Sequence record: MK327940.1
Source: Escherichia phage vB_EcoM_G29
Reading direction: 5' to 3' (one strand)
Length of the DNA: 64,000 nt
Below are positions 10,061 to 32,633 of this stretch, in pieces. The translations under genes and the position numbers were made by a program. Positions within the stretch are counted from its first letter, which is position 1. Every line of letters starts with the position of its first letter. A model generated the notes under the pieces. The model had not been told where the DNA came from and searched no databases. It saw nothing but the letters and a program-made list of their open reading frames with translations.

Positions 10061-10072
10061 TATTTATAAATA
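10061..10072. promoter_or_regulatory. Back-to-back late promoters for divergent genes 26 and 51
   Basis: tatttataaata: TATAAATA read on the minus strand (10061-10068) and on the plus strand (10065-10072), sharing 4 bp. Confidence 0.65.
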
Positions 10073-10089
10073 GAATAAAAGGAGCATCT

Positions 10090-10839
10090 ATGGCAAACAT
10101 TATTCGTTGTAAATTACCAGATGGTGTTCATCGTTTTAAACCATTTACGGTAGAAGATTATCGAGATTTTTTGTTAGTTCGAAACGATATAGAGCATCGG
10201 TCACCACAAGAACAAAAAGAAATAATTACTGATTTAATTGATGATTATTTTGGAGACTATCCGAAGACTTGGCAACCATTTATATTTTTGCAGGTATTTG
10301 TAGGTTCAATAGGTAAAACTAAAGTACCAGTCACATTTGTATGTCCAAAATGTAAAAAAGAAAAGACAGTTCCATTTGAAATATATCAAAAAGAATTAAA
10401 GGAACCTATTTTTGATGTAGCTAATGTTAAAATTAAATTAAATTTTCCTTCTGAGTTTTATGAAAATAAAGCAAAGATGATTACTGAAAATATTCATTCT
10501 GTTCAAGTAGATGAAATGTGGTATGATTGGAAGGAAATTAGTGAATCGAGTCAAATAGAACTTGTTGACGCCATCGAGATAGAAACATTAGAAAAAATTC
10601 TCGATGCAATGAATCCTATTAATTTAACATTGCACATGTCGTGTTGTGATAAGTACATTAAAAAATACACTGATATAGTAGATGTGTTTAAGCTATTAGT
10701 TAATCCAGATGAGATATTTACTTTTTATCAAATTAATCACACGCTTGTAAAAAGTAATTATAGCTTAAATTCAATAATGAAAATGATTCCTGCCGAGCGC
10801 GGATTCGTATTAAAACTGATTGAGAAGGATAAACAATAA
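10090..10839 (+). CDS. 51: Baseplate hub assembly protein gp51
   Basis: 249-aa ORF; contains CPKCKK zinc-ribbon-like motif; T4 gp51 length and position. Confidence 0.85.
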
Positions 10840-12011
10840 TGAGTATGTTGCAACGCCCCGGATATCCAAATCTCAGCGTTAAATTATTTGAGAGTTATGA
10901 CGCTTGGAGTAATAATAGATTTGTTGAATTAGCTGCTACTATTACCACATTAACTATGCGGGATTCTCTTTATGGTCGAAATGAAGGAATGCTACAATTT
11001 TATGATTCTAAAAATATCCATACAAAAATGGATGGAAATGAAATAATTCAGATTTCTGTAGCTAATGCAAACGATATTAATAATGTTAAAACAAGAATTT
11101 ATGGATGTAAGCATTTTTCTGTATCTGTAGATTCAAAAGGTGATAACATCATTGCTATTGAATTGGGAACTATTCATTCTATAGAAAATCTTAAATTTGG
11201 TAGACCATTTTTCCCTGATGCAGGTGAATCTATAAAAGAAATGCTTGGTGTCATTTATCAAGACCGCACATTATTAACTCCAGCAATAAATGCTATAAAT
11301 GCTTATGTTCCTGATATTCCATGGACTAGCACATTTGAAAACTATTTGTCATATGTAAGAGAAGTTGCTCTAGCGGTAGGAAGCGATAAGTTCGTATTTG
11401 TATGGCAAGACATCATGGGAGTTAACATGATGGACTATGATATGATGATAAATCAAGAACCATATCCAATGATTGTAGGTGAGCCAACTTTAATAGGTCA
11501 ATTCGTCCAAGAATTGAAATATCCATTAGCATATGATTTTGTTTGGTTGACTAAATCAAACCCGCATAAACGTGATCCAATGAAAAATGCTACTATCTAT
11601 GCTCATTCATTTTTAGATTCTTCATTACCAATGATTACTACAGGAAAGGGTGAAAACTCTATTGTAGTGTCAAGGTCAGGTGCTTATTCTGAAATGACTT
11701 ATAGAAATGGATATGAAGAAGCTATTCGTCTTCAGACTATGGCGCAATATGACGGCTATGCTAAATGTTCTACTGTCGGTAATTTTAACTTGACTCCTGG
11801 CGTTAAAATTATTTTTAATGATAGTAAAAACCAATTTAAAACAGAATTTTACGTTGATGAAGTTATTCACGAATTATCAAATAATAATTCCGTAACTCAT
11901 CTATATATGTTCACTAATGCAACGAAACTGGAAACAATCGACCCAGTTAAGGTTAAAAATGAATTTAAAACTGATACTACCACTGAAGAAAGTAGTTCTT
12001 CCGATAAGTAA
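10839..12011 (+). CDS. 27: Baseplate hub protein gp27
   Basis: 390-aa ORF; ATGA overlap with the gene 51 stop. Confidence 0.9.
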
Positions 12012-12492
12012 TAAAGAAGTTTCTATTCCTAAGATGGGTCTTAAACATTATAACATTTTAAAAGATGTTAAAGGTCCTGATGAAAATTTAAAGCTTCTTA
12101 TTGATTCTATTTGTCCAAATTTATCACCGGCAGAAGTTGATTTCGTTTCTATTCATTTATTGGAATTTAATGGAAAGATTAAATCTCGTAAAGAAATAGA
12201 TGGCTATACTTATGACATTAATGATGTTTATGTATGCCAAAGATTAGAATTTCAATACCAAGGAAATACATTTTATTTTAGACCTCCTGGAAAATTTGAA
12301 CAATTTTTAACGGTGAGCGATATGTTATCTAAATGCTTGCTTAAGGTCAACGATGAAGTTAAAGAAATTAATTTTCTTGAGATGCCAGCATTCGTTTTAA
12401 AATGGGCAAATGATATTTTTACAACTTTAGCAATTCCTGGCCCTAATGGTCCAATAACTGGAATTGGCAATATTATTGGATTATTTGAATGA
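11959..12492 (+). CDS. 28: Baseplate hub distal protein gp28
   Basis: 177 aa from the ATG at 11959 (track ORF starts at an upstream non-ATG codon); overlaps the gene 27 3' end out of frame. Confidence 0.8.
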
Positions 12493-14261
12493 AAAAGCCA
12501 CAAGAAATGCAAACGATGCGTAGAAAAGTTATTTCAGATAATAAACCAACACAGGAAGCGGCTAAATCCGCTTCCAATACTTTATCTGGACTTAATGACA
12601 TTTCTACAAAATTGGATGATGCTCAAGCTGCTTCTGAATTAATAGCTCAAACCGTTGAAGAAAAATCGAATGAAATAATTGGAGCAATTGACAATGTAGA
12701 AAGCGCAGTGAGTGATACTACTGCTGGTTCTGAGTTAATTGCTGAAACTGTCGAAATTGGCAATAATATTAATAAAGAAATCGGTGAATCGCTCGGAAGT
12801 AAATTAGATAAATTAACGAGTTTACTCGAGCAAAAAATCCAGACAGCCGGAATTCAACAAACAGGAACTAGTTTAGCTACGGTTGAAAGCGCTATTCCTG
12901 TTAAAGTTGTTGAGGACGATACAGCTGAATCCGTGGGTCCTTTATTACCAGCTCCTGAAGCAGTTAATAATGATCCTGACGCTGATTTTTTCCCTGCCCC
13001 TCAACCAGTTGAACCTAAGCGAGAGTCACCGGAAGAAAAACAGAAAAAAGAAGCATTTAATTTAAAATTATCTCAAGCTTTAGATAAATTAACAAAGACT
13101 GTTGATTTTGGATTTAAAAAATCCATTTCAATTACTGATAAAATATCAAGCATGCTATTTAAGTATACTGTCAGTGCTGCTATTGAAGCTGCTAAAATGG
13201 TTGCATTAATAATGGCTGTTGTTATTGGAATAGACCTACTGATGGTTCATTTTAAATATTGGTCAGATAAATTTTCAAAAGCCTGGGATTTGTTTAGCAC
13301 TGATTTTAAAACTTTTTCAAGCGAAACCGGAACTTGGGGTCCTTTATTACAGAGCATCTTTGAATCTATTGATGAAATTAAAAAGTTCTGGGAAGCGGGA
13401 GATTGGGGCGGTTTGACGGTAGCTATTGTAGAAGGGCTTGGAAAGGTTCTTTATAATTTAGGAGAACTTATTCAGCTTGGAATGGCTAAATTATCAGCAG
13501 CAATTCTTCGAGTTATTCCTGGTATGAAAGATACTGCTGACGAAGTAGAAGGAAGAGCACTGGAAAATTTCCAAAATTCTACTGGAGCATCTCTCAATAA
13601 AGAAGACCAGGAAAAAGTTGCGAATTATCAAGATAAACGAATGAATGGAGACCTTGGTCCGATAGCAGAAGGACTAGACAAAATTGCGAACTGGAAAACT
13701 CGTGCATCTAACTGGATTCGTGGTGTTGATAATAAAGAAGCATTGACAACTGATGAAGAACGCGCAGCAGAAGAAGAAAAATTAAAGCAGCTTTCACCAG
13801 AAGAAAGAAAAAATGCTTTAATGAAGGCTAATGAAGCCCGTGCCGCGATGATTCGTTTTGAAAAATATGCTGATTCAGCTGATATGAGTAAAGACTCAAC
13901 GGTTAAATCAGTTGAAGCTGCCTATGAAGACCTTAAAAAACGAATGGATGACCCGGATTTAAATAATTCACCGGCAGTTAAAAAAGAACTTGCTGCTAGA
14001 TTTTCTAAAATTGATGCTACTTATCAAGAGCTCAAGAAAAATCAGCCTAATGCCAAACCTCAAACTTCTGCTAAATCGCCAGAAGCAAAACAAGTCCAGG
14101 TAATAGAAAAGAACAAAGCACAGCAAGCTCCTATTCAACAAGCATCTCCTTCAATCAATAATACTAATAATGTTATTAAGAAAAATACTGTCGTTCATAA
14201 TATGACACCCGTAACGAGCACGACTGCTCCTGGTGTATTTGATGCGACTGGAGTTAATTAA
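12489..14261 (+). CDS. 29: gp29 baseplate hub / tail length determinator
   Basis: 590-aa ORF, T4 gp29 length; ATGA overlap with gene 28. Confidence 0.9.
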   Translation: MKKPQEMQTMRRKVISDNKPTQEAAKSASNTLSGLNDISTKLDDAQAASELIAQTVEEKSNEIIGAIDNVESAVSDTTAGSELIAETVEIGNNINKEIGESLGSKLDKLTSLLEQKIQTAGIQQTGTSLATVESAIPVKVVEDDTAESVGPLLPAPEAVNNDPDADFFPAPQPVEPKRESPEEKQKKEAFNLKLSQALDKLTKTVDFGFKKSISITDKISSMLFKYTVSAAIEAAKMVALIMAVVIGIDLLMVHFKYWSDKFSKAWDLFSTDFKTFSSETGTWGPLLQSIFESIDEIKKFWEAGDWGGLTVAIVEGLGKVLYNLGELIQLGMAKLSAAILRVIPGMKDTADEVEGRALENFQNSTGASLNKEDQEKVANYQDKRMNGDLGPIAEGLDKIANWKTRASNWIRGVDNKEALTTDEERAAEEEKLKQLSPEERKNALMKANEARAAMIRFEKYADSADMSKDSTVKSVEAAYEDLKKRMDDPDLNNSPAVKKELAARFSKIDATYQELKKNQPNAKPQTSAKSPEAKQVQVIEKNKAQQAPIQQASPSINNTNNVIKKNTVVHNMTPVTSTTAPGVFDATGVN

Positions 14262-14269
14262 GGAATAAT

Positions 14270-15364
14270 ATGGCAATTGTTAAAGAAATAACTGCTGATT
14301 TAATTAAAAAGTCCGGTGAGAAAATTTCAGCCGGACAGAGTACTAAATCAGAAGTAGCAACTAAAACATACACTGCCCAGTTTCCAACTGGGCGTGCTAG
14401 TGGTAATGACACTACAGGGGACTTCCAGGTAACAGATCTATATAAGAATGGATTATTATTTACTGCATACAATATGTCATCTAGGGATTCTGGAAGTCTT
14501 AGAACGATGAGATCTAACTACTCTTCTTCATCTTCGAGTATTTTACGTACAGCCAGAAACACTATCAGTAATACAGTATCAAAACTATCAAATGGACTAA
14601 TATCAGATAATAATTCAGGAACAATAAGTAAAGTTCCTGTTGCAAATATTCTTTTACCTAGATCTAAATCTGACGTCGATACGTCATCACATAGATTTAA
14701 TGATGTTCAAGATAGTCTTATTACAAAAGGTGGAGGTACTGCTACTGGTGTGCTAAGCAATATGGCTTCAACCGCAGTATTTGGAGCGCTGGAAAGTATA
14801 ACACAAGGTATAATGGCTGATAATAATGAACAGATTTATACGACAGCCAGAAGCATGTACGGCGGTGCTGAAAATAGAACTAAAGTGTTCACTTGGGATT
14901 TGACTCCGCGCTCAACAGAAGATTTAATGGCTATTATTAATATCTATCAGTATTTTAACTATTTTTCTTACGGTGAAACTGGTAAATCTCAATATGCTGC
15001 TGAAATAAAAGGATATCTAGATGAGTGGTACCGTTCTACTTTTATTGAGCCGTTAACTCCAGAAGATGCAGTTAAAAATAAGACGTTATTTGAGAAAATG
15101 ACATCGAGTTTAACTAACGTTCTTGTAGTTTCAAACCCGACAATTTGGATGGTGAAAAACTTTGGTGCAACATCTAAGTTTGATGGAAAAACGGAAATAT
15201 TCGGTCCATGTCAAATCCAGAGTATCAGATTTGATAAAACACCTAATGGTAACTTTAACGGATTAGCTATTGCTCCAAATCTCCCTAGTACATTTACTCT
15301 CGAGATTACTATGAGAGAAATTATCACGTTAAACCGTGCTTCTTTATATGCGGGGACTTTTTAA
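14270..15364 (+). CDS. 48: gp48 baseplate tail-tube cap
   Basis: 364-aa ORF, T4 gp48 size and position. Confidence 0.85.
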   Translation: MAIVKEITADLIKKSGEKISAGQSTKSEVATKTYTAQFPTGRASGNDTTGDFQVTDLYKNGLLFTAYNMSSRDSGSLRTMRSNYSSSSSSILRTARNTISNTVSKLSNGLISDNNSGTISKVPVANILLPRSKSDVDTSSHRFNDVQDSLITKGGGTATGVLSNMASTAVFGALESITQGIMADNNEQIYTTARSMYGGAENRTKVFTWDLTPRSTEDLMAIINIYQYFNYFSYGETGKSQYAAEIKGYLDEWYRSTFIEPLTPEDAVKNKTLFEKMTSSLTNVLVVSNPTIWMVKNFGATSKFDGKTEIFGPCQIQSIRFDKTPNGNFNGLAIAPNLPSTFTLEITMREIITLNRASLYAGTF

Positions 15365-16329
15365 TGTATTCTTTAGAGGAATTTAATAATCAAGCAATAA
15401 ACGCAGATTTCCAACGTAATAATATGTTCAGCTGTGTTTTTGCTACAACTCCATCAACTAAAAGCTCTTCGTTGATAAGTTCAATTAGCAACTTTTCTTA
15501 TAATAACTTGGGCCTAAATTCAGATTGGTTAGGATTAACTCAAGGCGATATTAATCAGGGAATTACTACGCTAATTACAGCTGGCACACAAAAACTGATA
15601 AGAAAATCAGGGGTTAGTAAATATCTTATTGGTGCCATGAGTCAACGTACAGTTCAAAGTTTATTAGGCTCATTTACAGTTGGTACATATTTAATTGACT
15701 TCTTTAACATGGCATATAACTCATCTGGATTGATGATATACTCTGTAAAAATGCCAGAGAATAGATTATCCTATGAAACTGACTGGAACTATAATTCTCC
15801 TAATATTCGTATAACTGGGAGAGAATTAGACCCTTTGGTTATTTCATTCAGAATGGATTCAGAAGCTTGTAACTATCGTGCAATGCAAGACTGGGTTAAC
15901 GCTGTTCAAGACCCAGTAACTGGATTGCGTGCTTTGCCGCAAGATGTCGAGGCTGATATTCAGGTTAATCTTCATTCTCGCAATGGATTACCACATACTG
16001 CGGTGATGTTCACTGGATGCATTCCAGTGTCCGTAAGCGCTCCTGAGTTATCATATGATGGAGATAACCAAATAACTACATTTGATGTTACTTTTGCGTA
16101 TAGAGTCATGCAGGCTGGAGCAGTTGATAGACAAGCTGCGCTTGAATGGCTTGAATCTGCTGCTATAAATGGTATTCAAAGCGTTCTCGGAAATAGTGGA
16201 GGTGTCACTGGACTATCTAATTCGCTTTCACGACTTAGTAGATTAGGGGGAACTGCAGGAAGCATTTCAAATATTAACACTATGACAGGAATTGTCAATT
16301 CGCAAAGTAAAATATTAGGAGCAATATAA
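15364..16329 (+). CDS. 54: gp54 baseplate tail-tube initiator
   Basis: 321-aa ORF, ATGA-overlapped with gene 48; terminator follows. Confidence 0.85.
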   Translation: MYSLEEFNNQAINADFQRNNMFSCVFATTPSTKSSSLISSISNFSYNNLGLNSDWLGLTQGDINQGITTLITAGTQKLIRKSGVSKYLIGAMSQRTVQSLLGSFTVGTYLIDFFNMAYNSSGLMIYSVKMPENRLSYETDWNYNSPNIRITGRELDPLVISFRMDSEACNYRAMQDWVNAVQDPVTGLRALPQDVEADIQVNLHSRNGLPHTAVMFTGCIPVSVSAPELSYDGDNQITTFDVTFAYRVMQAGAVDRQAALEWLESAAINGIQSVLGNSGGVTGLSNSLSRLSRLGGTAGSISNINTMTGIVNSQSKILGAI

Positions 16330-16333
16330 CAAT

Positions 16334-16363
16334 GGGGACCTTTCGGTCCCCATATTTTTATTT
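16334..16363. terminator. Bidirectional terminator between gene 54 (+) and the alt block (-)
   Basis: GGGGACC-UUUC-GGUCCCC hairpin followed by atatttttattt. Confidence 0.7.
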
Positions 16364-16648
16364 ACGGAATGAAATGAAAGCAGCAACTGAAGCAACTAAA
16401 CTGTCTTCAATATAAACTTCAATTTTTACCGGAGCTTCTGACTCAAATTTACCTGTTACTACACCCTGAAAAATACTTTCAGTCTGTTCTGGCTTTGAAA
16501 AATTTTCAGAAGGAAAAATTCCGAACTTTTTATCTGTTCCAAAAATTTTGATAAATTCATCGTAAACTGCTTCATTAAAAGCATTATCAGCAGGAATAAC
16601 GCCTTCAACTACAAGTTCTTGACCTAAAAAGCGCAAAGAAGATTTCAT
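16358..16648 (-). CDS. Hypothetical protein (position of T4 alt.-3)
   Basis: 96-aa ORF with SD GAGGA; preceded by an early promoter. Confidence 0.6.
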   Translation of the reverse strand: MKSSLRFLGQELVVEGVIPADNAFNEAVYDEFIKIFGTDKKFGIFPSENFSKPEQTESIFQGVVTGKFESEAPVKIEVYIEDSLVASVAAFISFRK

Positions 16649-16678
16649 TTTGTGTTCCTCATGTTATGTCAGTAAGAC

Positions 16679-16709
16679 TACTATAACACAACACGAGGGA
16701 CTTGTAAAC
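16679..16709 (-). promoter_or_regulatory. T4-type early promoter (GTTTAC -35, TATAGT -10)
   Basis: Minus strand GTTTAC-18 nt-TATAGT; part of a 53-bp unit repeated at 32581-32633. Confidence 0.6.
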
Positions 16710-18766
16710 TACATCTTGAACTTTTTAGACATTCCGTTGATGTTAACCAAAGAAGCTAAGATTTGAGAAACTTCGTTTTCCTCTTCTTTTGATTCTTCTA
16801 CAAGGAATTGATTAAATCCAGCCATTGGACGAACTTCACCAGTTTCCATTAGATGGTCGCCATCATATACTGATTCTTCTAATTGTTCAGAAGGAGGAAC
16901 GATTGTACCTTCGATTAGATACTTGTTATAAGCAGTTTCTTTCATAAAGTAAGTACTTACTTTATTAATCTTCAGTAAAATTCCACGTGGTAGAATAACT
17001 TCAGCTTCTGACGGAAATCCTGATAAATGACCCGGAACGATAACTTTGATTCGCTCAGCTCCTTTAATTACCATACCCACGCTAGTTTCAGCATCTTCAT
17101 TAGCATATGTAGAATGACTACCCATATGCATCAAATCTTCTGCATCAACGGAACCTTCTCCTTCACCAGAAAATACTGCGCCGGAATCATCTAGAGCCAT
17201 ATAGTTTTTACCATGCTCACCGAAGATATTTGGTTTAAGCGATGTGGATACGAAGTTCTTGAAATAGAACATTTTATTTTCAATGTTATGACGCAAAGTT
17301 TTAAAGGTAACTTCTTGTCCACGGTAAAGTGTAGTTCCTGGAGGAAGAACTGAACCTTTAGCGAATGCAGAATCAAGCGTCTCAATATGTTTAATAGCTC
17401 GTTCCATATATTCTTCACGGGTAGAATCTGGTTTACCCAAAAGGAACGAGTTCATTTCAACATATGAATCTGCACAATAATCTTCAATTACATCAGATTC
17501 AGCTTGAGTTAATCCTTTTGGAGTTACTTCAGTGCTTGCGTATTCATATGCCTGAGCAGCAGATTCATTAATCAATTTATAAATGCCATTCATGACAAAT
17601 TGAATAATAGCTGTCTTTTCATCTGGCGTAGCTTTAGAACCTTTAACCAAATCATTGATAATTTTCTTAATAACATCAAAGCTATTAGAAATATTAATAT
17701 CAGCAAGATCGCTTAAAATTTTATCAGTCTTATAATCAAAGAATTCTTTATTCTTTAAATATTCTTGAGAACCTTGATATGTTATATCGCTCTGTAACTT
17801 GATAGATGGATCACGTAAACGTGCATGGGCTAATGCAATATGATTTCGGAAGCTTTCGAGTTCATAATCACTAGATTTAAAACGAGAAGCGCTTCTCATA
17901 CCGCCTATAGCTCCTTTGCTGAAGTTTGAACCAATTTGAATAACGCCAGAGTTCATTGGTCCTTCTGCTTTATACACCGGAACTTTAGATTCAAACTCTT
18001 GATATTTCTTAGCAGCGAAGCTATCACCCTGAAGTGAAGCATCAACAGTAGAATATTGAGCTTGTGCTGCTAATCGACGACTAATTTTAGTTTTCTGAAT
18101 AACAGCTTGGTCCGTGCGCTTATCATTTTCTAAAGCAATAGAAGCAGCAACAGCAACAGCTTTAGGAACAGCATTACCTGTTTTAACATCTACATAAACA
18201 TCACCAACCTTTGATTCAACTTTTGTGAATAACTCAGTTGAAATAGGAGGTACACCTGGAATGTCTTCTAAATTGGCATTTTTACGATAAACCATAATAT
18301 ATGCGTACTTTTTATCATAATCCCAGATTTCCTTTAAAAGAACATATCGACCTGCTCCTTTAGTACGTACTAAACGGTCAGCAATAACTTGCATTTGACG
18401 AGCAGCGCCATTTGTTTTACTCTTTAGTACGCGGAATAAGCATGCATCAATTTTATACTGTTTCATTGTTTGAAGAGCAGTATCAAAAACAGCGTTAATG
18501 ACGCCAATTGGATTTCCACCCAAGTTTCTAAGTTTAACCAGTGATAATTTCTCGTTGACACCTATCATTACGATATGCATCATTTTATCGCCCGGCTTAA
18601 CGTTTTTATTTGTATCACCTCCAGAGGTGTATGTACAAAATCTAAATCCAGGAAGCACGCTTTCTTCGCCGGCTTGAATAGCAAAAATTTGAGGTATTTT
18701 ATGCTTAGGATTTAAGTTAACAACCGGCGCCGAAGCGCCGTCAAATAATTCTGTAATAAGTTCCAT
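16709..18766 (-). CDS. Alt-like ADP-ribosyltransferase, second full-length paralog
   Basis: 685-aa ORF; N-terminus MELITELFD and ART motifs (YRGQ, VSTSL, EAEVILPRG) parallel to the adjacent alt; about 50-65% identity by eye. Confidence 0.8.
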   Translation of the reverse strand: MELITELFDGASAPVVNLNPKHKIPQIFAIQAGEESVLPGFRFCTYTSGGDTNKNVKPGDKMMHIVMIGVNEKLSLVKLRNLGGNPIGVINAVFDTALQTMKQYKIDACLFRVLKSKTNGAARQMQVIADRLVRTKGAGRYVLLKEIWDYDKKYAYIMVYRKNANLEDIPGVPPISTELFTKVESKVGDVYVDVKTGNAVPKAVAVAASIALENDKRTDQAVIQKTKISRRLAAQAQYSTVDASLQGDSFAAKKYQEFESKVPVYKAEGPMNSGVIQIGSNFSKGAIGGMRSASRFKSSDYELESFRNHIALAHARLRDPSIKLQSDITYQGSQEYLKNKEFFDYKTDKILSDLADINISNSFDVIKKIINDLVKGSKATPDEKTAIIQFVMNGIYKLINESAAQAYEYASTEVTPKGLTQAESDVIEDYCADSYVEMNSFLLGKPDSTREEYMERAIKHIETLDSAFAKGSVLPPGTTLYRGQEVTFKTLRHNIENKMFYFKNFVSTSLKPNIFGEHGKNYMALDDSGAVFSGEGEGSVDAEDLMHMGSHSTYANEDAETSVGMVIKGAERIKVIVPGHLSGFPSEAEVILPRGILLKINKVSTYFMKETAYNKYLIEGTIVPPSEQLEESVYDGDHLMETGEVRPMAGFNQFLVEESKEEENEVSQILASLVNINGMSKKFKM

Positions 18767-18769
18767 GAT

Positions 18770-20821
18770 TTATCCTTGAACGAACTTGTAAGGCATGTTT
18801 GTAATATCTATGCAAGACGCAATAATTCCAAGAGATGATTCTACTTTCTGTTTAACATTTGATGAAACAAATGATGCAAAGTCAACTCTATCTTCTATAT
18901 CACCTGTCATTGTAACTACTTCGCCGGTTTCCATTAAACGGTCACCGTCATAAATTACTGATTCGGTGAGTTCTTCGGTGGTCATAACTTCAGCTTGAAT
19001 AAGCTTGTTGTTAGTTTTGACTGTTCCATCATTGTAAGATGCATCAGTTATTTTATTAACTTTGACCATTAATCCACGTGGCAAAATGACTTCCATTTCA
19101 TTTGAAGGCGCTAAACTTCCACCGGGTAAAACAACATTGACTTTATCAGCCCCAGTAATAACCCATCCAATTCCGACTAAATTATCGCTAGAATTAACAA
19201 GCCCTTCATCATTTTTATCGATAGAAATGTTTAGACGCTTTTCATCTGGTAAAACACCAACAGCTGAATCAGTCATCCAAGTACCAAAAATGTTTGGATA
19301 TAATGATGTTGATACAAAATTTCTAAAATAAAAAACTCGATTTTTTACCATTGCTTCGTATATTGAAGGTAACATTCGTTGTGAACGATACAAAGTAATA
19401 CCTTTTGGTAATCGTTCACCATTTTTAAAGGCTGAATCTAAATTATCAATAGCTTTTTCTATGTCAGATGCTGTCAAAATACTTGTACGCTCATCTGGAT
19501 TATATAATCCCAAAAGAGCATTATTTATGTCTACATATCCTGAACCTACGTATTCACGAATTCCGCGTTTTTGTGCTGGTGTGTATTTAGATGAATCTTT
19601 ATTTTCGACTATAGGATGTAATGACCATCCAGCTGTAAGAGCATATCCACGTAATTCTCTTCGAATAATCTTTGTTTTTATTGCATTCCAAGAATTTTGT
19701 ACTAACTCATTTGCAGCATCTTGGTTTAAATGCGAATGTTTGTTAATATTTCTTTCAAACCAAGCACCTTTATATTTTTCTAAAGTATTATCGACGATAG
19801 AAGCAATAGTTTCTAAAGTTTTTATTGAAGTAATAGATTCTTTTCGTAATTTTTCTAAAGCTTTATTTTTTATTTCTGCATTAATAATGGATTCTTTATC
19901 TTCAGGAATTATAGAAGCTTCTCTGAATGCCATCCCAGCTGTAACACTGCTAAGAGCATTCTCTAGTGCAAATCCTGAAGTAGAAATTACCGTTAATTCA
20001 TTAGAATCAGAAATTAAAGGCGCATCAGCGGGTTTATTTAATTCTGCTGCTGAAGCCTCAAATTTTTGAAACATCGGTGTTTCAAATCTAGAAGATTCCA
20101 ATGACTGACTTTGTGCAATTGCTCTACGGGAAATTTTAACTTTAACGATTACAGCTTGGTCAGAACGTTTATCATTTTCTTGTGCAATAGATGCTGCAAT
20201 TGCCTCATTTTTGGTTACTTGAGCTCCGGTATCTTTATTGATATAAACATCACCGACCTTCGATTCAACTTTAGTAAAGAGCTCGGTACTAATTTCCGGA
20301 ACTCCTGGAATGTCTTCTAGTGATACATTTTTGCGATGTATAAGAATATATGCATACTTTTTATCATAATCCCAGAGTTCCTTAAGAAGGACGTATCTGC
20401 CACCTGAACGACTACGGATAAGTCTATCAGCAATAACTTGAATTTGTCGAGCTTGATCAGCGGTTTTAGACTTAAGAATACGAAGCATACAAGCATCAAT
20501 TTTATACTGACGCATTGTTTGCATTGCAACAGTAAAAACTGAATTGATATAATTAATTGGGCTTGGACCAAGACCTTTTAATTTAGCAATTGAACCTTTA
20601 GCGGTTAATGTAAAAGGAACAATATGCATCATTTTATCGCCCATTTTTAAATCGCGATTAGTATCACCTCCAGATGTATAGGTACATAAACGAAAGCCTG
20701 GTTGTTCAATTGCATCATCAACATGAACTGAAAAAATTTGCGGTATTTTCTTCTTTGGATTTAAGTTTGTAATCGGAAGAGTAGTATCTTCGTCAAATAA
20801 TTCTGTAATAAGTTCCATCAT
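18770..20821 (-). CDS. alt: Alt ADP-ribosyltransferase (packaged internal head protein)
   Basis: 683-aa ORF with R-S-E ART motifs (LYRSQ, VSTSL, EMEVILPRG); late promoter immediately upstream. Confidence 0.85.
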   Translation of the reverse strand: MMELITELFDEDTTLPITNLNPKKKIPQIFSVHVDDAIEQPGFRLCTYTSGGDTNRDLKMGDKMMHIVPFTLTAKGSIAKLKGLGPSPINYINSVFTVAMQTMRQYKIDACMLRILKSKTADQARQIQVIADRLIRSRSGGRYVLLKELWDYDKKYAYILIHRKNVSLEDIPGVPEISTELFTKVESKVGDVYINKDTGAQVTKNEAIAASIAQENDKRSDQAVIVKVKISRRAIAQSQSLESSRFETPMFQKFEASAAELNKPADAPLISDSNELTVISTSGFALENALSSVTAGMAFREASIIPEDKESIINAEIKNKALEKLRKESITSIKTLETIASIVDNTLEKYKGAWFERNINKHSHLNQDAANELVQNSWNAIKTKIIRRELRGYALTAGWSLHPIVENKDSSKYTPAQKRGIREYVGSGYVDINNALLGLYNPDERTSILTASDIEKAIDNLDSAFKNGERLPKGITLYRSQRMLPSIYEAMVKNRVFYFRNFVSTSLYPNIFGTWMTDSAVGVLPDEKRLNISIDKNDEGLVNSSDNLVGIGWVITGADKVNVVLPGGSLAPSNEMEVILPRGLMVKVNKITDASYNDGTVKTNNKLIQAEVMTTEELTESVIYDGDRLMETGEVVTMTGDIEDRVDFASFVSSNVKQKVESSLGIIASCIDITNMPYKFVQG

Positions 20822-20842
20822 AGCCTCTCTAGTGTTTATTCT

Positions 20843-20850
20843 ATTTATAA
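20843..20850 (-). promoter_or_regulatory. Late promoter (TATAAATA) for alt
   Basis: Minus-strand TATAAATA 22 nt upstream of the alt ATG; preceded by a GGCC-UUCG-GGCC hairpin (20855-20872). Confidence 0.65.
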
Positions 20851-20870
20851 AATTAAAGGCCCGAAGGCCT

Positions 20871-21059
20871 TTAGTAATCTAGTGGTAAGAGAGTACGATA
20901 TATTTCAAACTTTGGTCCTTTTTCATAGGCATCAAATGTTTCTGTAAATTTATTATAAGCGTATGCATCTACAAATTCGAGAATGACTTGTGATACAGAA
21001 GTAGAAACATCTCCACCTTCTTTTTGAGCAATGACAATTGTTTCTAAGTAAGCTTTCAT
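20871..21059 (-). CDS. Hypothetical protein (position of T4 alt.1)
   Basis: 62-aa ORF, ATGA-overlapped with the gene 30 stop. Confidence 0.55.
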   Translation of the reverse strand: MKAYLETIVIAQKEGGDVSTSVSQVILEFVDAYAYNKFTETFDAYEKGPKFEIYRTLLPLDY

Positions 21060-22519
21060 AAACCAGTTACCTCATGAAAATCACCAAATACATCCTCGAA
21101 TGTATTAGCTTTAGTTTTATCTTCACGTAAACGAATCGCAATCGGAAGAAATAATTTAACGTAATCAGTGCGGCCATCAGATTTTAACCAACCGTTGCAT
21201 TCGCACTCTAGAATTTTTCCAATATAATAATTTTGGTTTTCCATAATGCGAGTACGGTCAAGTTCATGCGATTTTACACCGGCTTTATCTTTTAAGCCTG
21301 AACCAGCATTTACCTTAATTTTTCCACACTCTGATTCAAGAATAAATCCACCCGCTTTAGTAGGGTCTTTACGGTGAGGATAAATTCCTACAATTTTTAA
21401 ATCAACATCAATTACTTCTTTAAATTTATAGAGATTTTTTGAACGAGCATTTTCCCACAATCCATCGGTATTTTTGAGAATAATACCTTCAAGACCTTGG
21501 TCAATATACTTTTTATAAATTACCTTAGCTTCATCTAGGTTATTTACTACCTGGTTTTCAATTAAAATTACTTTATCATAACCTGATGTCATTTGTTCTA
21601 GTTTAGAAAAACGTACATCATATTTCAAACGAAATGCAGGAAGACCGTATATTTCTACCAACGGGACATAATCCCAGACCTGAAACTTCATGCATTGAGC
21701 TTCTTTTTCAGAAATGGTTCCCTTTAAAGATTTATTGGCGATGCCATTAGATGCAGTACGTGATTCAGCTACTTCGGCGAATTCTTTAGCTTTACTAATT
21801 TCAGGATAAGCATCAAAAAGAAAATCTAGGCCTTCTGGCTCCTTTTCAACTTGCTCATGGTATACCAATTCGCCATCAATTAACACACCTTCTGGATGAA
21901 TCTGGCGAGCTTCTGTAGTCATTTTGATTAACTCTTCCTTAAGAAGATCTAATCCTAGATATTCATTACCAGCTCGTGATAAAAGACGAACATCATCTAA
22001 TTCATCACCTCTGACTTCAGCAAAACACCGAGCTCCATCAGCTTTTAACTGGGCAAAGGCTGGAAATTTGATATTCTTATTAATGCCTTTTTCATCATAA
22101 GAACTTGCAAGCATTTGAGGTTGTTCAGGAATTAAACCTGGCCAAACTTTGTTTGCAATAGATACTGAAGCACCGCATTCAAGGTCTCGCATCATCACCC
22201 GACGCAAAACTTCAACATCATCTTTTTTACCGTCAGTAATATATCCAGTTAATTCCTCAATTGCCGCATTTCCAGTCAATTTCCGAGTAGCTAACGTGAA
22301 TTCAATGAAGTCAAGCATATCGGTAAGAGTCAACATTCCAAAACTCTGGGTAGCAATACCCGGTTTAGGCCATTTCTTGATATAATACTGTAACCCACGA
22401 GAATAAGTCAGACGATATACTCGTTTAAGCAATTCATTATCTTTATTCTTTTCAAGAATTGCTTGCTTCTGCTTAGTTGAACCAATAGATGCTATTTCGT
22501 TCAGAATTTTAAGAATCAT
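21056..22519 (-). CDS. 30: ATP-dependent DNA ligase gp30
   Basis: 487-aa ORF (T4 ligase length) with adenylation lysine motif KADGAR. Confidence 0.9.
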   Translation of the reverse strand: MILKILNEIASIGSTKQKQAILEKNKDNELLKRVYRLTYSRGLQYYIKKWPKPGIATQSFGMLTLTDMLDFIEFTLATRKLTGNAAIEELTGYITDGKKDDVEVLRRVMMRDLECGASVSIANKVWPGLIPEQPQMLASSYDEKGINKNIKFPAFAQLKADGARCFAEVRGDELDDVRLLSRAGNEYLGLDLLKEELIKMTTEARQIHPEGVLIDGELVYHEQVEKEPEGLDFLFDAYPEISKAKEFAEVAESRTASNGIANKSLKGTISEKEAQCMKFQVWDYVPLVEIYGLPAFRLKYDVRFSKLEQMTSGYDKVILIENQVVNNLDEAKVIYKKYIDQGLEGIILKNTDGLWENARSKNLYKFKEVIDVDLKIVGIYPHRKDPTKAGGFILESECGKIKVNAGSGLKDKAGVKSHELDRTRIMENQNYYIGKILECECNGWLKSDGRTDYVKLFLPIAIRLREDKTKANTFEDVFGDFHEVTGL

Positions 22520-22785
22520 TGTTCATCCTTTAGAGTTTGGTTTACAGCTCTATTATAAATCAATTCATCATTAAGCTCAGTCAAAGACCTGTGGTACGTG
22601 GTTCTAACTTTATTTCCTTGCATCCAGTGCTTGACGTAAATGAAACCTTGCTCTACACATTTTTTAAAAATTCGTTCGTCTTTTTGAGCTCGGAATTCTG
22701 GATTGCATCTAAAAAATTGATTTACGTGACCGTAATCACGTGTAGTATTACCTTCATTTTCATAAATAGTATGAACAACAAACAT
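22516..22785 (-). CDS. Hypothetical protein (30.1 position)
   Basis: 89-aa ORF, overlapping start/stop with neighbours. Confidence 0.6.
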   Translation of the reverse strand: MFVVHTIYENEGNTTRDYGHVNQFFRCNPEFRAQKDERIFKKCVEQGFIYVKHWMQGNKVRTTYHRSLTELNDELIYNRAVNQTLKDEQ

Positions 22786-23639
22786 TAGAATGCTCCTTGG
22801 AAAATATTATCACCACTACCACTAGTAAGTCTATTAAAATACCCTGCGTCGCCAGGCTTAATATAACTCCACGTATGGAATGGATGCATCTGATGTGAGT
22901 GTGTATAATATGGATGATATGGATTATAAGGATTAAATCCAGGAGTTCTCCAAGTAGTGTTCCAACGAAAAGAATCGTTTTTAATCATCTTCTCAATTAC
23001 ATCTTTTATAACTTTTTCACTATCAAAACTTTCTTTATTTTCCTTCGATGGAAAAAGCTTATTCTCTACATCATTCCATGTATAAACTCGCTGTGCAGTT
23101 TTTGGAATACTGTCACGTTCCCCTCGAGCCATCCAATAAACAGGAACATTTAATATTTCACTCGCGTGATCGCAGTGGTGAGCGAGATCGTCAATATAAC
23201 AAATTACGTTATATTTCTCTTTTGCCTTTTTGAACAACTCTTCTTTTGAAGAATCATGACCACACATCAATACTTCTGAGAAGGCACCAGGAAAAAGAGC
23301 ATTCAAATTAAATTGACGATTCAGCAGAGCGTCAATAGAATCACCCAATGCTGTAACAGCTACAAAATTATAATCTTCTTTTAATTTGTTAATTACACAC
23401 AGGGCATCTTTATATGGAGACAAGTAACGAATAAAATCTGAACGATTGTATTTTTCAATTAACTTGACGCCAAGTTCTTCATCACAATTAAAGAGTTTAC
23501 CAGGAGAAATAAATTTCTCATCTTGGATCATTTTTAAAATATGTTCTAACGGAAGATTATATTTCTGAGCAAAATAAGGAAGGCCTGATTGCCAGCTTAA
23601 ACATACTCCATCAATATCAGTTAAAATAGTAGGCTTCAT
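22785..23639 (-). CDS. HAD-superfamily phosphatase-like protein (30.2 position)
   Basis: 284-aa ORF; N-terminal ILTDIDGV (HAD motif I) and later YIDD (motif IV); unusual His/Tyr/Pro-rich C-terminal tail. Confidence 0.65.
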   Translation of the reverse strand: MKPTILTDIDGVCLSWQSGLPYFAQKYNLPLEHILKMIQDEKFISPGKLFNCDEELGVKLIEKYNRSDFIRYLSPYKDALCVINKLKEDYNFVAVTALGDSIDALLNRQFNLNALFPGAFSEVLMCGHDSSKEELFKKAKEKYNVICYIDDLAHHCDHASEILNVPVYWMARGERDSIPKTAQRVYTWNDVENKLFPSKENKESFDSEKVIKDVIEKMIKNDSFRWNTTWRTPGFNPYNPYHPYYTHSHQMHPFHTWSYIKPGDAGYFNRLTSGSGDNIFQGAF

Positions 23640-24100
23640 AGAGAGTCTCTTAATAGGTTTAACACATCAATAAATTCAGCTTCGGTTAATATTGTATCAT
23701 CTTTTGTTAGACCACTAGCCATGCTGTGCTTCAAAACTTTTCCTTTCGAGGCGTGTAATGCATCACGAAAGCCCTTGTTTTGGATCGCTGCTTCAAAATA
23801 TGCATTTGTGTATAATTCTTTCCATGCTGGGGAGTATCTTGAAAACGGAACTCCAAGCCAGAAGAGGGTCCCACGGTCCTGAGCTCTAGCATAAGACCTT
23901 CCAGCTTGTTGGGCGGCAAGCCCGGATAACCCAAATATACGACGTTGTTGTTCAGCATTTTTCACCTTGCATCCTTGGAGGAATCCTTCAAGACCTCCGA
24001 ATTGAATACCATCCATGACGAAAGGCCATTGGGCGAAATTACTTAATGCACACGATGGCCATCTAAAATTGCTTCTAATCTCTAACTCAGACATTTTCAA
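23636..24100 (-). CDS. NADAR / YbiA-like protein (30.3 position)
   Basis: 154-aa ORF; core LSNFAQWPFVMDGIQF resembles the YbiA/NADAR signature as recalled from memory. Confidence 0.55.
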   Translation of the reverse strand: MKMSELEIRSNFRWPSCALSNFAQWPFVMDGIQFGGLEGFLQGCKVKNAEQQRRIFGLSGLAAQQAGRSYARAQDRGTLFWLGVPFSRYSPAWKELYTNAYFEAAIQNKGFRDALHASKGKVLKHSMASGLTKDDTILTEAEFIDVLNLLRDSL

Positions 24101-24293
24101 TACTTATAATTTCAACATCAGCCCAATGACCATAGCAAGGAAGACGAAATTCAACTGGCCAGTTAGGGTCCTTTTCTAATATAATAGACTTAACTTGTGG
24201 TTCTTCATGTTCATCAGTATATGGATTTTTATCTGTTACTTTATATGTGACCTTAATGTACTGAATTCCAAAAATCTTATTAATTATATTCAT
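24087..24293 (-). CDS. Hypothetical protein (30.x)
   Basis: 68-aa ORF in the operon-like array downstream of ligase. Confidence 0.55.
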   Translation of the reverse strand: MNIINKIFGIQYIKVTYKVTDKNPYTDEHEEPQVKSIILEKDPNWPVEFRLPCYGHWADVEIISIENV

Positions 24294-24487
24294 ACTAATT
24301 CCTTTAATCCGTAGATAGGAGATAATTCATCGCCCATACGAAGGTCTTCATTTCCATCTACCCAAGAAACAATATAAGCCTCTTTTATTTGAATACCACT
24401 CCATTTAAACGGAGGTAGAACCTTAGAAATTAATCCAGGTATACCAACTCCCTTTAATTCAACAGTTTGACCTAAAAAGAATTTCAT
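24290..24487 (-). CDS. Hypothetical protein (30.x)
   Basis: 65-aa ORF, ATGA-coupled to neighbours. Confidence 0.55.
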   Translation of the reverse strand: MKFFLGQTVELKGVGIPGLISKVLPPFKWSGIQIKEAYIVSWVDGNEDLRMGDELSPIYGLKELV

Positions 24488-24825
24488 TAAAACCTCATCT
24501 GAAAACCGTGCGATTTAACATTACCGCCATTAATATCAGAACTATTAATTTCACGTGCAATTGAGGGATCAATGTCAATTTCGCGATTGAGTTTAGTGAT
24601 AGCTAAAGTATCGCGCCCATTTACAGTACGGAACTCTAAAGGGCAGACTACATTAACGTAGTTTTTAATCGATTCACTGGTAGGTTGCAAATGTGCAGGA
24701 AGGTCTTTAGGCGCCTTTGAGAAAACTACTTCGCAGAAGTTTTTACGGGTATCAAAATAAGTAGTCATAAACATAACATTTTCCTCAGTAAGGGGCCAAA
24801 GCCCCTCATTTATTTTAAATATCAA
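24487..24825 (-). CDS. Hypothetical protein (30.x)
   Basis: 112-aa ORF. Confidence 0.6.
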   Translation of the reverse strand: MIFKINEGLWPLTEENVMFMTTYFDTRKNFCEVVFSKAPKDLPAHLQPTSESIKNYVNVVCPLEFRTVNGRDTLAITKLNREIDIDPSIAREINSSDINGGNVKSHGFQMRF

Positions 24826-25192
24826 ATTCGTTAAGAACTACATCAAAGATTGCTTCAAGATGCTCAGGTTTAGCTCTGTTACTCAGAATATGACGAATCC
24901 AAGTTTTAACCAAAAGCTTGCGATTAACGCCATTCCAGCAAGGATGAGTCCCTAAATCGCGTTCACGGAAATCATCATCCAGAGCGATTTTAAAGTTGGA
25001 ACCTTCCATCGTGATTGAAACCGTGATACCGTTTTCAAATCGCATATAAACGTAATTAGGAGTCATATACTGCTCAATTTCGCATACTGATCCATTTTGA
25101 TGTTTCCAAAGGCAAATAGTATCAATAGAACCTGCAATACCATTAGAAACATATTTACGTTCAAAGTTGATGTAGTTCATTTTATTCTCCAA
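24815..25192 (-). CDS. Hypothetical protein (30.x)
   Basis: 125-aa ORF. Confidence 0.6.
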   Translation of the reverse strand: MENKMNYINFERKYVSNGIAGSIDTICLWKHQNGSVCEIEQYMTPNYVYMRFENGITVSITMEGSNFKIALDDDFRERDLGTHPCWNGVNRKLLVKTWIRHILSNRAKPEHLEAIFDVVLNEFDI

Positions 25193-25247
25193 GATGTTTA
25201 ATTGCGGTACAGGTATATAATATCATATCCTGTACCAAAGTAAACAA

Positions 25248-25580
25248 TTATTTTACTACTTTCCAATGCTGCATGTCAAGTTTACCAACTTTTTTCATCT
25301 TCTCAATTAAGCGTTCGGCACGTTGGCGAGCTGTAACATAATACCATTCACCTAATTCATTTTGTTCAATTTTTCCAACGATTACTGTATTCAATTCATA
25401 AATCCAACCAGTAAAGAAATTATGAACTTGAATTGTAAAGGTGAAATCTGTTCCCATACCTTCTGTTGTTTCTACTTCAATAATATCACCTTCAACTGCC
25501 ATTAAGAACCACATAGTTTCATCATATTTACCATTGAAGCATTTAGTTTTAACTGCAGCGTTCAGATTAATCGTTTTCAT
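25248..25580 (-). CDS. Hypothetical protein (30.8 position)
   Basis: 110-aa ORF; early promoter upstream at 25608-25637. Confidence 0.6.
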   Translation of the reverse strand: MKTINLNAAVKTKCFNGKYDETMWFLMAVEGDIIEVETTEGMGTDFTFTIQVHNFFTGWIYELNTVIVGKIEQNELGEWYYVTARQRAERLIEKMKKVGKLDMQHWKVVK

Positions 25581-25607
25581 TTTATTCTCCTTTGTTTGTG
25601 TAAGATA

Positions 25608-25637
25608 ATACTATCACAAAGGAACCATACTGTAAAC
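25608..25637 (-). promoter_or_regulatory. T4-type early promoter
   Basis: Minus strand GTTTAC -35 (25632-25637) and -10-like TAGTAT 18 nt downstream. Confidence 0.5.
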
Positions 25638-25654
25638 AACTTTATGCAATCTTT

Positions 25655-25685
25655 GGAAAATAAAAAAGGACTCCCGAAGGAGTCC
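25655..25685 (-). terminator. Terminator after the 30.9-position ORF
   Basis: GGACUCC-UUCG-GGAGUCC hairpin followed on the minus strand by cuuuuuuauuuu. Confidence 0.7.
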
Positions 25686-25690
25686 TCAAC

Positions 25691-25867
25691 TTATGCTTTC
25701 TGCTTACCAAAACGAGAAGCATCATCTCGAAGAACCGCACGTGCTCGGCGCATGATCTTCTCAACAGTTTGATTGATACGAGAGTTCGACCCACGCTTGT
25801 AGCCAGCGCGTTTAGAATCACCAACTTTCTTTTCAACTGCTTTCTTTGCTTTAGCTTGTTTTGCCAT
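25691..25867 (-). CDS. Small lysine-rich basic protein (30.9 position)
   Basis: Frame of track ORF 25691..25909, taken from the internal Met (MAKQAKAKKAVEKK...); start uncertain, alternative ATG at 25909. Confidence 0.5.
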   Translation of the reverse strand: MAKQAKAKKAVEKKVGDSKRAGYKRGSNSRINQTVEKIMRRARAVLRDDASRFGKQKA

Positions 25868-26265
25868 TATAAATTCTCTTTTAAATGAAAATGCAGGACT
25901 TATTGGCATTGCCTGCGCAAGCCCTCAAGGGGAACATAGGTTTTTTGATATTTAACGACCAGGATAACCATAAACCCGTCATCATACCTTATAGCTCTTA
26001 TCTGTTGCACACCGTTAGCTTAAAGGTTCCGGGTTCGATTTCTCGAGGATAAGATATATACTGATGGATATATAGGCCTTGAGGCGTACTCCCGATTGGC
26101 CATCACCTCGGGGTAGCATGCACTTGCCGCTATAAGAATAACATTCAAGAGGTACACCGTAAAACTGCCGGGGTCTTAAAACTATAATGATTCGCAAATC
26201 ATTAATCAGACAGTTCGACGGCTCCTCGTTTTAACTTCACACTAAGGCAGTGAATCTCCAATAAA

Positions 26266-26514
26266 TTACTTCAGTGTTACCACAAAGTGACGAACTGCTT
26301 TTCGTGCAGCAGAAGCCAGAGGCTTAGCATATTTAAGTTCATCTTTTTCCTGAAGCTCAGCAGCTAATGCAGTTTGAGCAGGATTCAGATGTTTGAAATA
26401 ACGCAGGATTTCAAGAGCTTCGGCTTCAACATCAATAGATGCGCCATAGTTTTCGTGACCATTATTCCATGCGTTTCGTTGCAGTTCAAGAGCGTGTTGT
26501 AATTGTTTAATCAT
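26266..26514 (-). CDS. rIII: RIII lysis-inhibition accessory protein
   Basis: 82-aa ORF, T4 RIII size and position between the 30.x block and gene 31. Confidence 0.8.
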   Translation of the reverse strand: MIKQLQHALELQRNAWNNGHENYGASIDVEAEALEILRYFKHLNPAQTALAAELQEKDELKYAKPLASAARKAVRHFVVTLK

Positions 26515-26661
26515 TTAAAAATTCTCGTTAGAGATTAAAACTCGGTAGTCACGTTCTTCTGAATTTCATCTTCTTTCGACAGATCTCTCAGTTGTAGACT
26601 ACCACATAGAATTGTTCGGTTAACTTATTATTCCGACACCAAATTCATATTATTATTTATA

Positions 26662-31728: not shown

Positions 31729-32078
31729 TTAGAAAGGTCCTGGATGTCTTCTGCGAACTTGTTGAAGGAGTTGTTGATTTGTTTTTCAACCAATCCTGGC
31801 TTATGAGCCACCACATCCGCCTTCTTTGCGTCTTTGCGCAGCTTTTCATTTTCACGCTCAATAGCAGCAATCGCCTCACGATTTTTATTATTCATCGCAT
31901 CAATATAATTATACTGAATTCGCAAATTATTTAATGCTAAGGCGTTTTCATTGGCCGTTTTTGTAATTTCTACAACAGACGTTTCTAATCTTTCTACCTT
32001 ATTTTTTAAAATAATAGATGTTCCGCCAAATGCTATTACAAGTAATAGCAATCCAGCTGTAAAATTACTTACATGCAT
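31725..32078 (-). CDS. Inner-membrane spanin (Rz-like)
   Basis: 117-aa ORF; N-terminal TM helix (LLLLVIAFGG) then charged coiled-coil region; directly upstream of the lipoprotein ORF. Confidence 0.65.
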   Translation of the reverse strand: MHVSNFTAGLLLLVIAFGGTSIILKNKVERLETSVVEITKTANENALALNNLRIQYNYIDAMNNKNREAIAAIERENEKLRKDAKKADVVAHKPGLVEKQINNSFNKFAEDIQDLSK

Positions 32079-32572: not shown

Positions 32573-32602
32573 CATAAAGTCCTCATGTTATGTCAGTAAG
32601 AC

Positions 32603-32633
32603 TACTGTAACACAACACGAGGGACTTGTAAAC
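32603..32633 (-). promoter_or_regulatory. T4-type early promoter (copy of the 16657-16709 unit)
   Basis: Minus strand GTTTAC-18 nt-TACAGT; 52 of 53 bp identical to the alt.-3-position promoter. Confidence 0.6.

Follow-up and report, generated by a model that had tools for sequence, protein, structure and literature searches.

Alt2, a conserved paralog of the ADP-ribosyltransferase Alt, in the two-gene alt locus of Escherichia phage vB_EcoM_G29

What is known of injected phage ADP-ribosyltransferases (ARTs) comes almost entirely from T4, whose Alt protein (gpAlt) is an NAD+--arginine ADP-ribosyltransferase that is packaged in the head, with about 40 copies in the mature head, and injected. Here we describe the alt locus in 64,000 nucleotides (nt) of Escherichia phage vB_EcoM_G29 (sequence record MK327940.1), a stretch referred to below as the window, in which alt is followed by an intact paralog of 685 amino acids (aa), Alt2 (16709..18766, minus strand; the gene called alt.-2 in RB14 and RB32). 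T4 carries one of these two conserved genes. Alt2 resembles T4 Alt in family, length, R-S-EXE catalytic residues, cleavage motifs of the head protease gp21 and operon, and differs from it in an unrelated middle domain (8% identity), in the ART domain (30%), in the C-terminal propeptide (37%) and in the loop that precedes the EXE motif. Beyond the phages, the C3, VIP2, iota Ia, CDTa, Certhrax and Vis toxins have their fold and catalytic motif in common with the C-terminal domain of Alt2. The EXE motif of Alt2 is like that of the arginine-specific toxins, whereas C3 and Certhrax have QXE, and in place of the delivery domain or partner of the R-S-E toxins its ART domain has propeptides and an N-terminal domain specific to phages.

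The tandem pair is neither rare nor new, and is a real but ordinary feature. Full-length duplications of alt in other T4-like phages were noted by Nolan et al. 2006 (PMC1524935), and the second gene is already annotated as 'ADP-ribosyltransferase Alt2' in the BASEL phages Bas35, Bas36, Bas37, Bas40 and Bas44 and as 'alt.-2' in RB14, RB32 and ime09. The annotated Alt2 of other Tequatrovirus phages, including that of T2 and the gene named 'Alt-like RNA polymerase ADP-ribosyltransferase' by RefSeq, is the same gene, with 99% protein identity, the same position and 685 codons. As a genome feature the pair is minor, being the normal annotated state of the genus, and its value lies in what it points to. 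Strong purifying selection, conservation in another genus and a mild fitness cost in a transposon screen suggest a real role for Alt2 at the start of infection, and since versions of Alt are known to differ in the bacterial defence that they counter, a screen for Alt2 targets could be informative.

We favour, with somewhat better than even confidence, a model in which Alt2 would be a second late-made, head-packaged, gp21-processed and injected arginine-specific ADP-ribosyltransferase with its own set of targets; the evidence for the enzymatic part of this model is much stronger than that for packaging and targets. According to the model, the single late promoter upstream of alt would drive late transcription of both genes, and alt2, whose start lies 3 nt beyond the alt stop codon, would be translated from a Shine-Dalgarno site of its own. 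Like Alt, the protein would enter the prohead core by means of the shared N-terminal domain and terminal propeptides, would be trimmed by gp21 after ITE-6 and LEE-631 to ~69 kDa, and, once injected with the DNA, would mono-ADP-ribosylate arginines of host proteins through its R-S-EXE site.

Paralogy with Alt and conservation of Alt2

The 4.8 kb around alt and alt2 are 100% identical to Escherichia phages vB_EcoM_G4498 and FL08, and RefSeq annotates both long open reading frames (ORFs) of G4498 as 'Alt-like RNA polymerase ADP-ribosyltransferase'. A preceding sequence-only reading of the window had described two adjacent ORFs of 685 and 683 aa, both starting MELITELFD, and in each of these respects it was borne out; on the minus strand they occupy 16709..18766 (685 aa) and, counted from the first ATG, 18770..20821 (683 aa). 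The two proteins match over their full length (BLASTP, E = 1e-160) at 42% identity, for which the 50-65% earlier estimated by eye is too high overall, the N-terminal domain alone reaching 67%. Both also match Pfam PF03496 and, end to end, phrog_802 'Alt-like RNA polymerase ADP-ribosyltransferase' (for Alt2, E = 5.8e-20 and, over residues 1-685, E = 2e-256, respectively). A precomputed match to PF26846 accompanies PF03496 for the near-identical cluster P0001 and homologs, while NCBIfam holds no model matching Alt2.

Divergence between the paralogs differs markedly by region. Best conserved are the N-terminal 235 residues (PF26846; 67% identity), followed by the C-terminus (37%), the ART domain (30%) and the middle (8%). 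In Alt2 the N-terminal domain (aa 1-237, PF26846 Tevenvirinae_ADPRT; 18056..18766, minus strand) includes the 6-aa propeptide MELITE; the helical middle region (aa 238-415; 17522..18055, minus strand) is essentially unrelated to that of Alt (8-18% identity); the ART domain spans aa 416-625 (16892..17521, minus strand); and a predicted C-terminal propeptide (aa 632-685; 16712..16873, minus strand) begins after L-E-E631, with SVYDGD. At their 5' ends the two genes are identical over the first 28 nt, an identical stretch which had been noticed earlier and put at 27 bp. At third codon positions the paralogs agree in ~50% of cases within the N-terminal domain, in ~40% outside it and in 72% over the first 30 codons, including the identical 28 nt; this rise at the gene starts suggests local gene conversion or an RNA constraint around the start codon.

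At the position of the second copy T4 has only the short alt.-1 and alt.-2, as the sequence-only reading had stated and as the T4 record confirms. In that record they are presented as a duplicated initial portion of alt, whereas our comparison shows a remnant of a full-length Alt2: alt.-1 and alt.-2 represent the first 116 codons (~350 nt) of Alt2 at 95% nt identity, and the loss of 1 nt from an A-run that follows codon 54 splits them into two ORFs. T4 matches the window over 18915-18419 at 95% nt identity and picks up again at 16728-16313, at 97%. The ~1.7 kb between the left copy of a 9-bp near-repeat, CTAAAGAGT (18419..18427, minus strand), at which the T4 deletion starts, and its right copy, CTAAAAAGT (16720..16728, minus strand), are absent from T4. 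In T4 and ~90 related records Alt2 was thus lost by a 1-nt frameshift and a deletion of ~1.7 kb between the 9-bp repeats, leaving alt.-1 and alt.-2.

The segment missing from T4 is carried, at no less than 95% nt identity, by 401 of the ~530 records that match the locus, and 91 phage records have the T4-type junction. Intact Alt2 is the majority and ancestral state in Tequatrovirus, T4 is the derived exception, and the window is a Tequatrovirus with the ancestral two-gene alt locus, a T4-type alt followed by alt2. The rarity of an intact second copy that the comparison with T4 had implied does not hold, since 401 records carry the part that T4 lacks and a second copy is present in Dhakavirus JS10 as well.

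It might be supposed from the T4 annotation of alt.-1 and alt.-2 that the second copy is a duplicate in decay, on its way to becoming a pseudogene, and T4, KAW1E185 and sutha do show that the locus is able to lose or truncate Alt2. We give this reading a negligible probability. Nine Alt2 orthologs were compared (this window, T2, Bas35, Bas36, Bas40, Bas44, P922, BF15 and pSs-1), and in all nine the ORF is exactly 685 codons long, with whole-gene pairwise ratios of nonsynonymous to synonymous divergence (dN/dS) of 0.01-0.06 at dS of 0.10-0.28; the catalytic residues are invariant, and 401 records keep the region at the identity given above. Because its 685 codons are intact, its dN/dS is low and its catalytic residues are invariant, Alt2 is an intact gene under strong purifying selection and not a decaying copy; for this window the invariant catalytic residues and dN/dS refute decay.

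Catalysis, targets and packaging

The catalytic codons of Alt2 lie, on the minus strand, at 17321-17323 (R482), 17246-17248 (S507, of S507-T-S) and 17000-17008 (E587-A-E589). Those of alt (18770..20818, minus strand), a T4-type allele whose 682-aa product is 98.2% identical to T4 Alt, encode R478, S503 and E574-M-E576. The catalytic signature noticed in the sequence-only reading is present in both copies, as LYRS/LYRG, VSTSL and EMEVILPRG/EAEVILPRG, and careful alignment showed no loss. The Arg (R482), the Ser that opens STS (S507) and the two Glu of EXE (E587 and E589) are invariant across 62 diverse family members, in an alignment with only eight invariant columns. In T4 Alt the E577A mutant, in which the second Glu of EME is changed (counting from the first ATG), is inactive (PMC11404850).

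A direct sequence search with Alt2 alone against solved structures gave no match, and a family profile was needed. This profile, built from the 62-sequence alignment, matches 39 solved ADP-ribosylating toxins, including C3bot, VIP2, iota Ia and CDTa, and its alignments place the YR and EXE motifs of the family onto those of Certhrax and the C3-like transferase 4xsg; a direct search with Alt likewise aligns the YR and EXE motifs with those of CdtA. The AlphaFold (AF2) model of Alt2 (mean pLDDT 82.8, pTM 0.78) matches Vis, C3bot, Certhrax, VIP2 and CDTa with a Foldseek probability of 1.0, among 58 matches at E <=1e-3, and the fold that it predicts is of the C3/VIP2/CDTa ART type.

These observations bear on the suggestion that Alt2 is mainly a structural component of the prohead core, with an enzymatic activity that is secondary or lost. 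Alt is reported to be both an enzyme and a protein of the core (PMC11404850), and the 'Intermediate' essentiality of Alt2 on a defence-poor K-12 host, discussed below, would suit such a role. However, none of the four catalytic residues (Arg, Ser and two Glu) varies, dN/dS is low (over the whole gene, not per domain), and T4-type phages have normal heads without Alt2; we regard a mainly structural role as improbable.

Target choice is where Alt and Alt2 are expected to part. In C3-type toxins the loop before the EXE motif contributes to substrate choice. This loop reads SGFPSEAE in Alt2, LAPSNEME in T4-type Alt and LGIATEAE in T2-type Alt, the other version of the upstream gene (see below). 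The F of SGFPSEAE aligns with the family-consensus y and with the Y of Certhrax (SEYPGQYE) and C3 (TAYPGQYE), so that Alt2 has the aromatic residue expected of the R-S-E clade in the first turn of the pre-(E/Q)xE loop; the same position is Ala in T4-type Alt and Ile in T2-type Alt. Since its middle domain and pre-EXE loop differ completely from those of Alt, Alt2 most likely modifies different targets. A second packaged ART with different targets would be compatible with the kept gp21 motifs, the shared N-terminal domain and the differing middle domain and loop.

Functional data that touch the locus come from a recent preprint that includes a transposon screen of Bas37, in which bas37_0032 is listed as 'ADP-ribosyltransferase Alt2' in the supplementary tables and Alt2 is unmentioned in the main text (10.1101/2025.11.20.689424). 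In the Bas37 reference transposon library Alt2 is classed as 'Intermediate', with 116 of its 164 TA sites hit, while Alt and its small neighbours are 'Non-essential'; after passage on K-12 the mean insertion count is 44.5 for Alt2, compared with 203.6 for Alt, 169.7 for the alt.-3 orthologue and 197.7 for alt.1 (10.1101/2025.11.20.689424). By our reading of these tables, which is not a claim of the authors, disruption of Alt2 appears to carry a moderate fitness cost even on a laboratory host. In the same study T4 Alt counters the Mokosh type I defence, and the Alt of Bas37 (bas37_0033, T2-type) fails to complement (10.1101/2025.11.20.689424).

These data also speak to whether Alt2 is a redundant back-up of Alt that acts on the same targets, including the alpha subunit of RNA polymerase, and raises the dose, as might be supposed from the family, catalytic motif and operon that they have in common and from the survival of T4 with Alt alone. 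We consider this quite unlikely. The catalytic domains are just 30% identical and the middle regions 8%, the pre-EXE loops differ, and the two lineages have been separate since before the split of Tequatrovirus and Dhakavirus, each under its own constraint. Moreover, insertion counts in Bas37 drop on disruption of Alt2 despite an intact Alt, and even the closer T4-type and T2-type alleles of Alt are not interchangeable against Mokosh type I.

Regarding packaging, T4 Alt was found by mass spectrometry to lack six N-terminal residues (cut at ITE-6) and 63 C-terminal residues (cut at LTE-619), with a mass of 68.2 kDa (PMC5694885), and the mass computed for residues 7-619 of the window's Alt, which has both gp21 motifs (ITE-6 and LTE-619), is 68.25 kDa, in agreement with that value. 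Alt2 has the same start, MELITE/L (cuts are marked by a slash), and at its C-terminus L-E-E631/SVYDGD aligns with the mapped LTE-619/SVIYDGD of T4 Alt. An L/I-x-E gp21 motif is thus present at both termini of Alt2, at the positions mapped in T4 Alt, as a match of sequence only, and the product after both predicted cuts would have a mass of 69.1 kDa. LME/TGE was rejected as the C-terminal cleavage site, given the cut of T4 Alt at LTE-619. JS10 and a divergent metagenomic T4-like contig (L013) have matching motifs in both of their Alt copies, and Glu6 and the YDGD..ETGE block are nearly invariant across the 62 family sequences.

Alternatively, Alt2 could be an active ART that is not packaged and acts late within the producing cell, on host or phage proteins. 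Late-operon expression is compatible with a purely intracellular late role, and we found no virion data for Alt2 in the literature. Nevertheless, we think this unlikely: at the positions that correspond to the mapped T4 Alt sites, the gp21 motifs, the 6-aa propeptide and the C-terminal YDGD..ETGE block have all been kept, and the N-terminal domain tracks that of the tandem partner (65-67% identity) over that of the positional counterpart in the other genus (46%), which fits a shared, lineage-specific assembly partner.

Several points weigh against Alt2 as a second packaged and injected effector. Our literature searches retrieved no paper on the function of Alt2, only the paralogy note of Nolan 2006 and annotation-level mentions, and nothing usable on virion proteomics that covers Alt2. 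A shared packaging route is inferred from conservation, and the search for structural homologs of the Alt2 N-terminal domain returned no informative one. In the two Bas37 host comparisons examined, out of six, Alt2 had no conditional phenotype (log2 fold change, log2FC, of 0.11 and 0.19, not significant). Because T4 and ~90 other records are without it, Alt2 is dispensable at least on laboratory hosts, and a stable hairpin in its codons 10-15, described below, could lower or modulate alt2 expression.

Module exchange at the alt locus

The upstream alt gene exists in two versions, T4-type in 174 records and T2-type in 320. Relative to the T4-type, the T2-type proteins (T2, RB51, HY01, Bas37_0033, Bas40 and Bas44; 697-698 aa) are 99-100% the same in the N-terminal part and 91-100% in the C-terminal part, whereas the middle domain is only 32% and the ART domain 62% identical. 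The T2-type alt sits in the upstream slot and not in that of Alt2, and is a third version of Alt-family effector in the genus. Two phages show further reshuffling or loss. KAW1E185 (L004 4981-7038) has a single hybrid gene that is T2-type alt up to EAEVILPRG and Alt2 thereafter, the product of an unequal crossover at the catalytic motif, and in sutha (L005 5981-8184) Alt2 is reduced to its last 38 codons.

Dhakavirus JS10 and the metagenomic contig carry the tandem pair too, with the same surrounding genes. The middle, catalytic and C-terminal parts cluster by gene position, Alt2 with the downstream copies and the T2-type alt with the upstream copy of JS10. The catalytic domains of T2-type Alt (L003 5042-7135) and the upstream Alt of JS10 (L014 3913-5997) are 94% identical while their N-terminal domains are 47% identical, a pattern which suggests that the genera have exchanged the enzymatic module. 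N-terminal domains, in contrast to the other parts, cluster by genome, with 65-67% identity between tandem partners and 42-47% between genera. Together with the exchange of modules, this grouping could be explained by gene conversion, or by N-terminal domains that have each co-adapted with the head of their own phage.

In its organization the alt locus is reminiscent of polymorphic-toxin-like effectors, in that the N- and C-terminal parts are conserved and a middle-plus-ART module is swapped; this is an analogy only: neither an immunity gene nor a secretion system is involved, and the phage head would be the means of delivery. We tentatively propose a broader interpretation, to which we give slightly less than even weight: Alt2 may be a second head-packaged, injected effector with targets distinct from those of Alt, possibly in host defence or takeover, whose conservation across T-even phages is tighter than that of Alt and which escaped notice because T4 deleted alt2. 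The alt locus may be polymorphic-effector-like, combining a lineage-specific N-terminal packaging domain with enzymatic modules that move between genera and are recombined through crossover at the catalytic motif.

Transcription signals and flanking features

On the minus strand the gene order is DNA ligase (21056-22519), alt.1 (20871-21059), alt, alt2 and alt.-3 (16358..16648; DUF5498, 96 aa), the final gene of the block, with the plus-strand tail genes 29, 48 and 54 convergent towards it. Alt2 lies between gene 30/alt.1 and alt.-3/gene 54, behind the late promoter. This is a T4 late-promoter box, TATAAATA (20842..20849, minus strand), ~20 nt upstream of the alt start; there is no second TATAAATA within 10072-26654, and alt2 is without a box of its own. 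Upstream of the box, the terminator scan, sequence and fold identify a C(UUCG)G hairpin followed by a T-rich tract (20854..20873, minus strand), a terminator-like element that would close the upstream gene 30/alt.1 transcript. It is annotated as a terminator in NC_054918, and a terminator upstream of alt was reported in five of six T4-like genomes (Nolan 2006, PMC1524935). The sequence-only reading had placed one late promoter and hairpin upstream of the distal copy; the promoter box is indeed single, and box and hairpin stand upstream of the orthologue of T4 alt, the first gene transcribed.

Two neighbouring ATGs occur at the alt start, the first (20821) giving 683 aa and the second (20818) 682 aa. 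T4 and RefSeq annotate the second as the start, and GAGG lies 5 nt before it; the published mutant name E577A and the published '7-residue propeptide' match Alt numbering from the first. Downstream, the alt stop codon TAA occupies 18770-18772 and the Alt2 ATG follows 3 nt further on, with a Shine-Dalgarno sequence for Alt2, AAGGA (18773..18777, minus strand), seen in the sequence within the last alt codons, 6 nt before the ATG. The terminator-like hairpins annotated in G4498 are one upstream of the late promoter and one after alt.-3, and the terminator scan additionally lists a weak 6-bp candidate within alt2 (18506-18490). A single late operon, alt-alt2-alt.-3, would be the simplest reading, in which we infer co-transcription from these signals.

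Right after the shared 28 nt, codons 10-15 of Alt2 contain a CGGCGC-UUCG-GCGCCG hairpin (18725..18740, minus strand), identified from sequence and fold. It is invariant in the nine Tequatrovirus copies, as are the first ~90 nt of alt2, with dS elsewhere of 0.1-0.28; in contig L013 the stem is preserved and the loop reads UGCG, and JS10 is without the hairpin. A role for this hairpin as a terminator or attenuator was dropped, as it is without a T-run and the whole-region fold z-score is unremarkable.

Beyond alt2, alt.-3 is preceded by an early-promoter-like intergenic cassette (16655..16708, minus strand) composed of TTTACA-17-TATAGT, a 5' untranslated region and GAGGA, and a bidirectional GNRA-loop terminator (16332..16353) separates it from the converging gene 54. 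In T4, C-terminal extension mutants of Alt.-3 escape the CmdTAC defence (PMC11618068), and on E. coli CFT073 the alt.-3 orthologue of Bas37, bas37_0031, shows depletion in the transposon screen (log2FC -2.70, adjusted p 0.02; 10.1101/2025.11.20.689424). The 54-nt cassette (GTTTACAAGTCCCTCGTGTTGTGTTAT/CAGTAGTCTTACTGACATAACATGAGGA) is near-exactly repeated on the minus strand of the window, at 16655-16709, before alt.-3, and at 32580-32633, before a 168-aa ORF (32069-32575) downstream of the RNA ligase gene, and could be both a shared regulatory cassette and a recombination site. Finally, phage G4500 (MK327945.1), otherwise identical, has ~177 extra bases in the middle region of alt (window 19400-20100), where its match falls in two pieces with a span of 878 bp for a 701-bp query, which could be a duplication or an assembly artefact.

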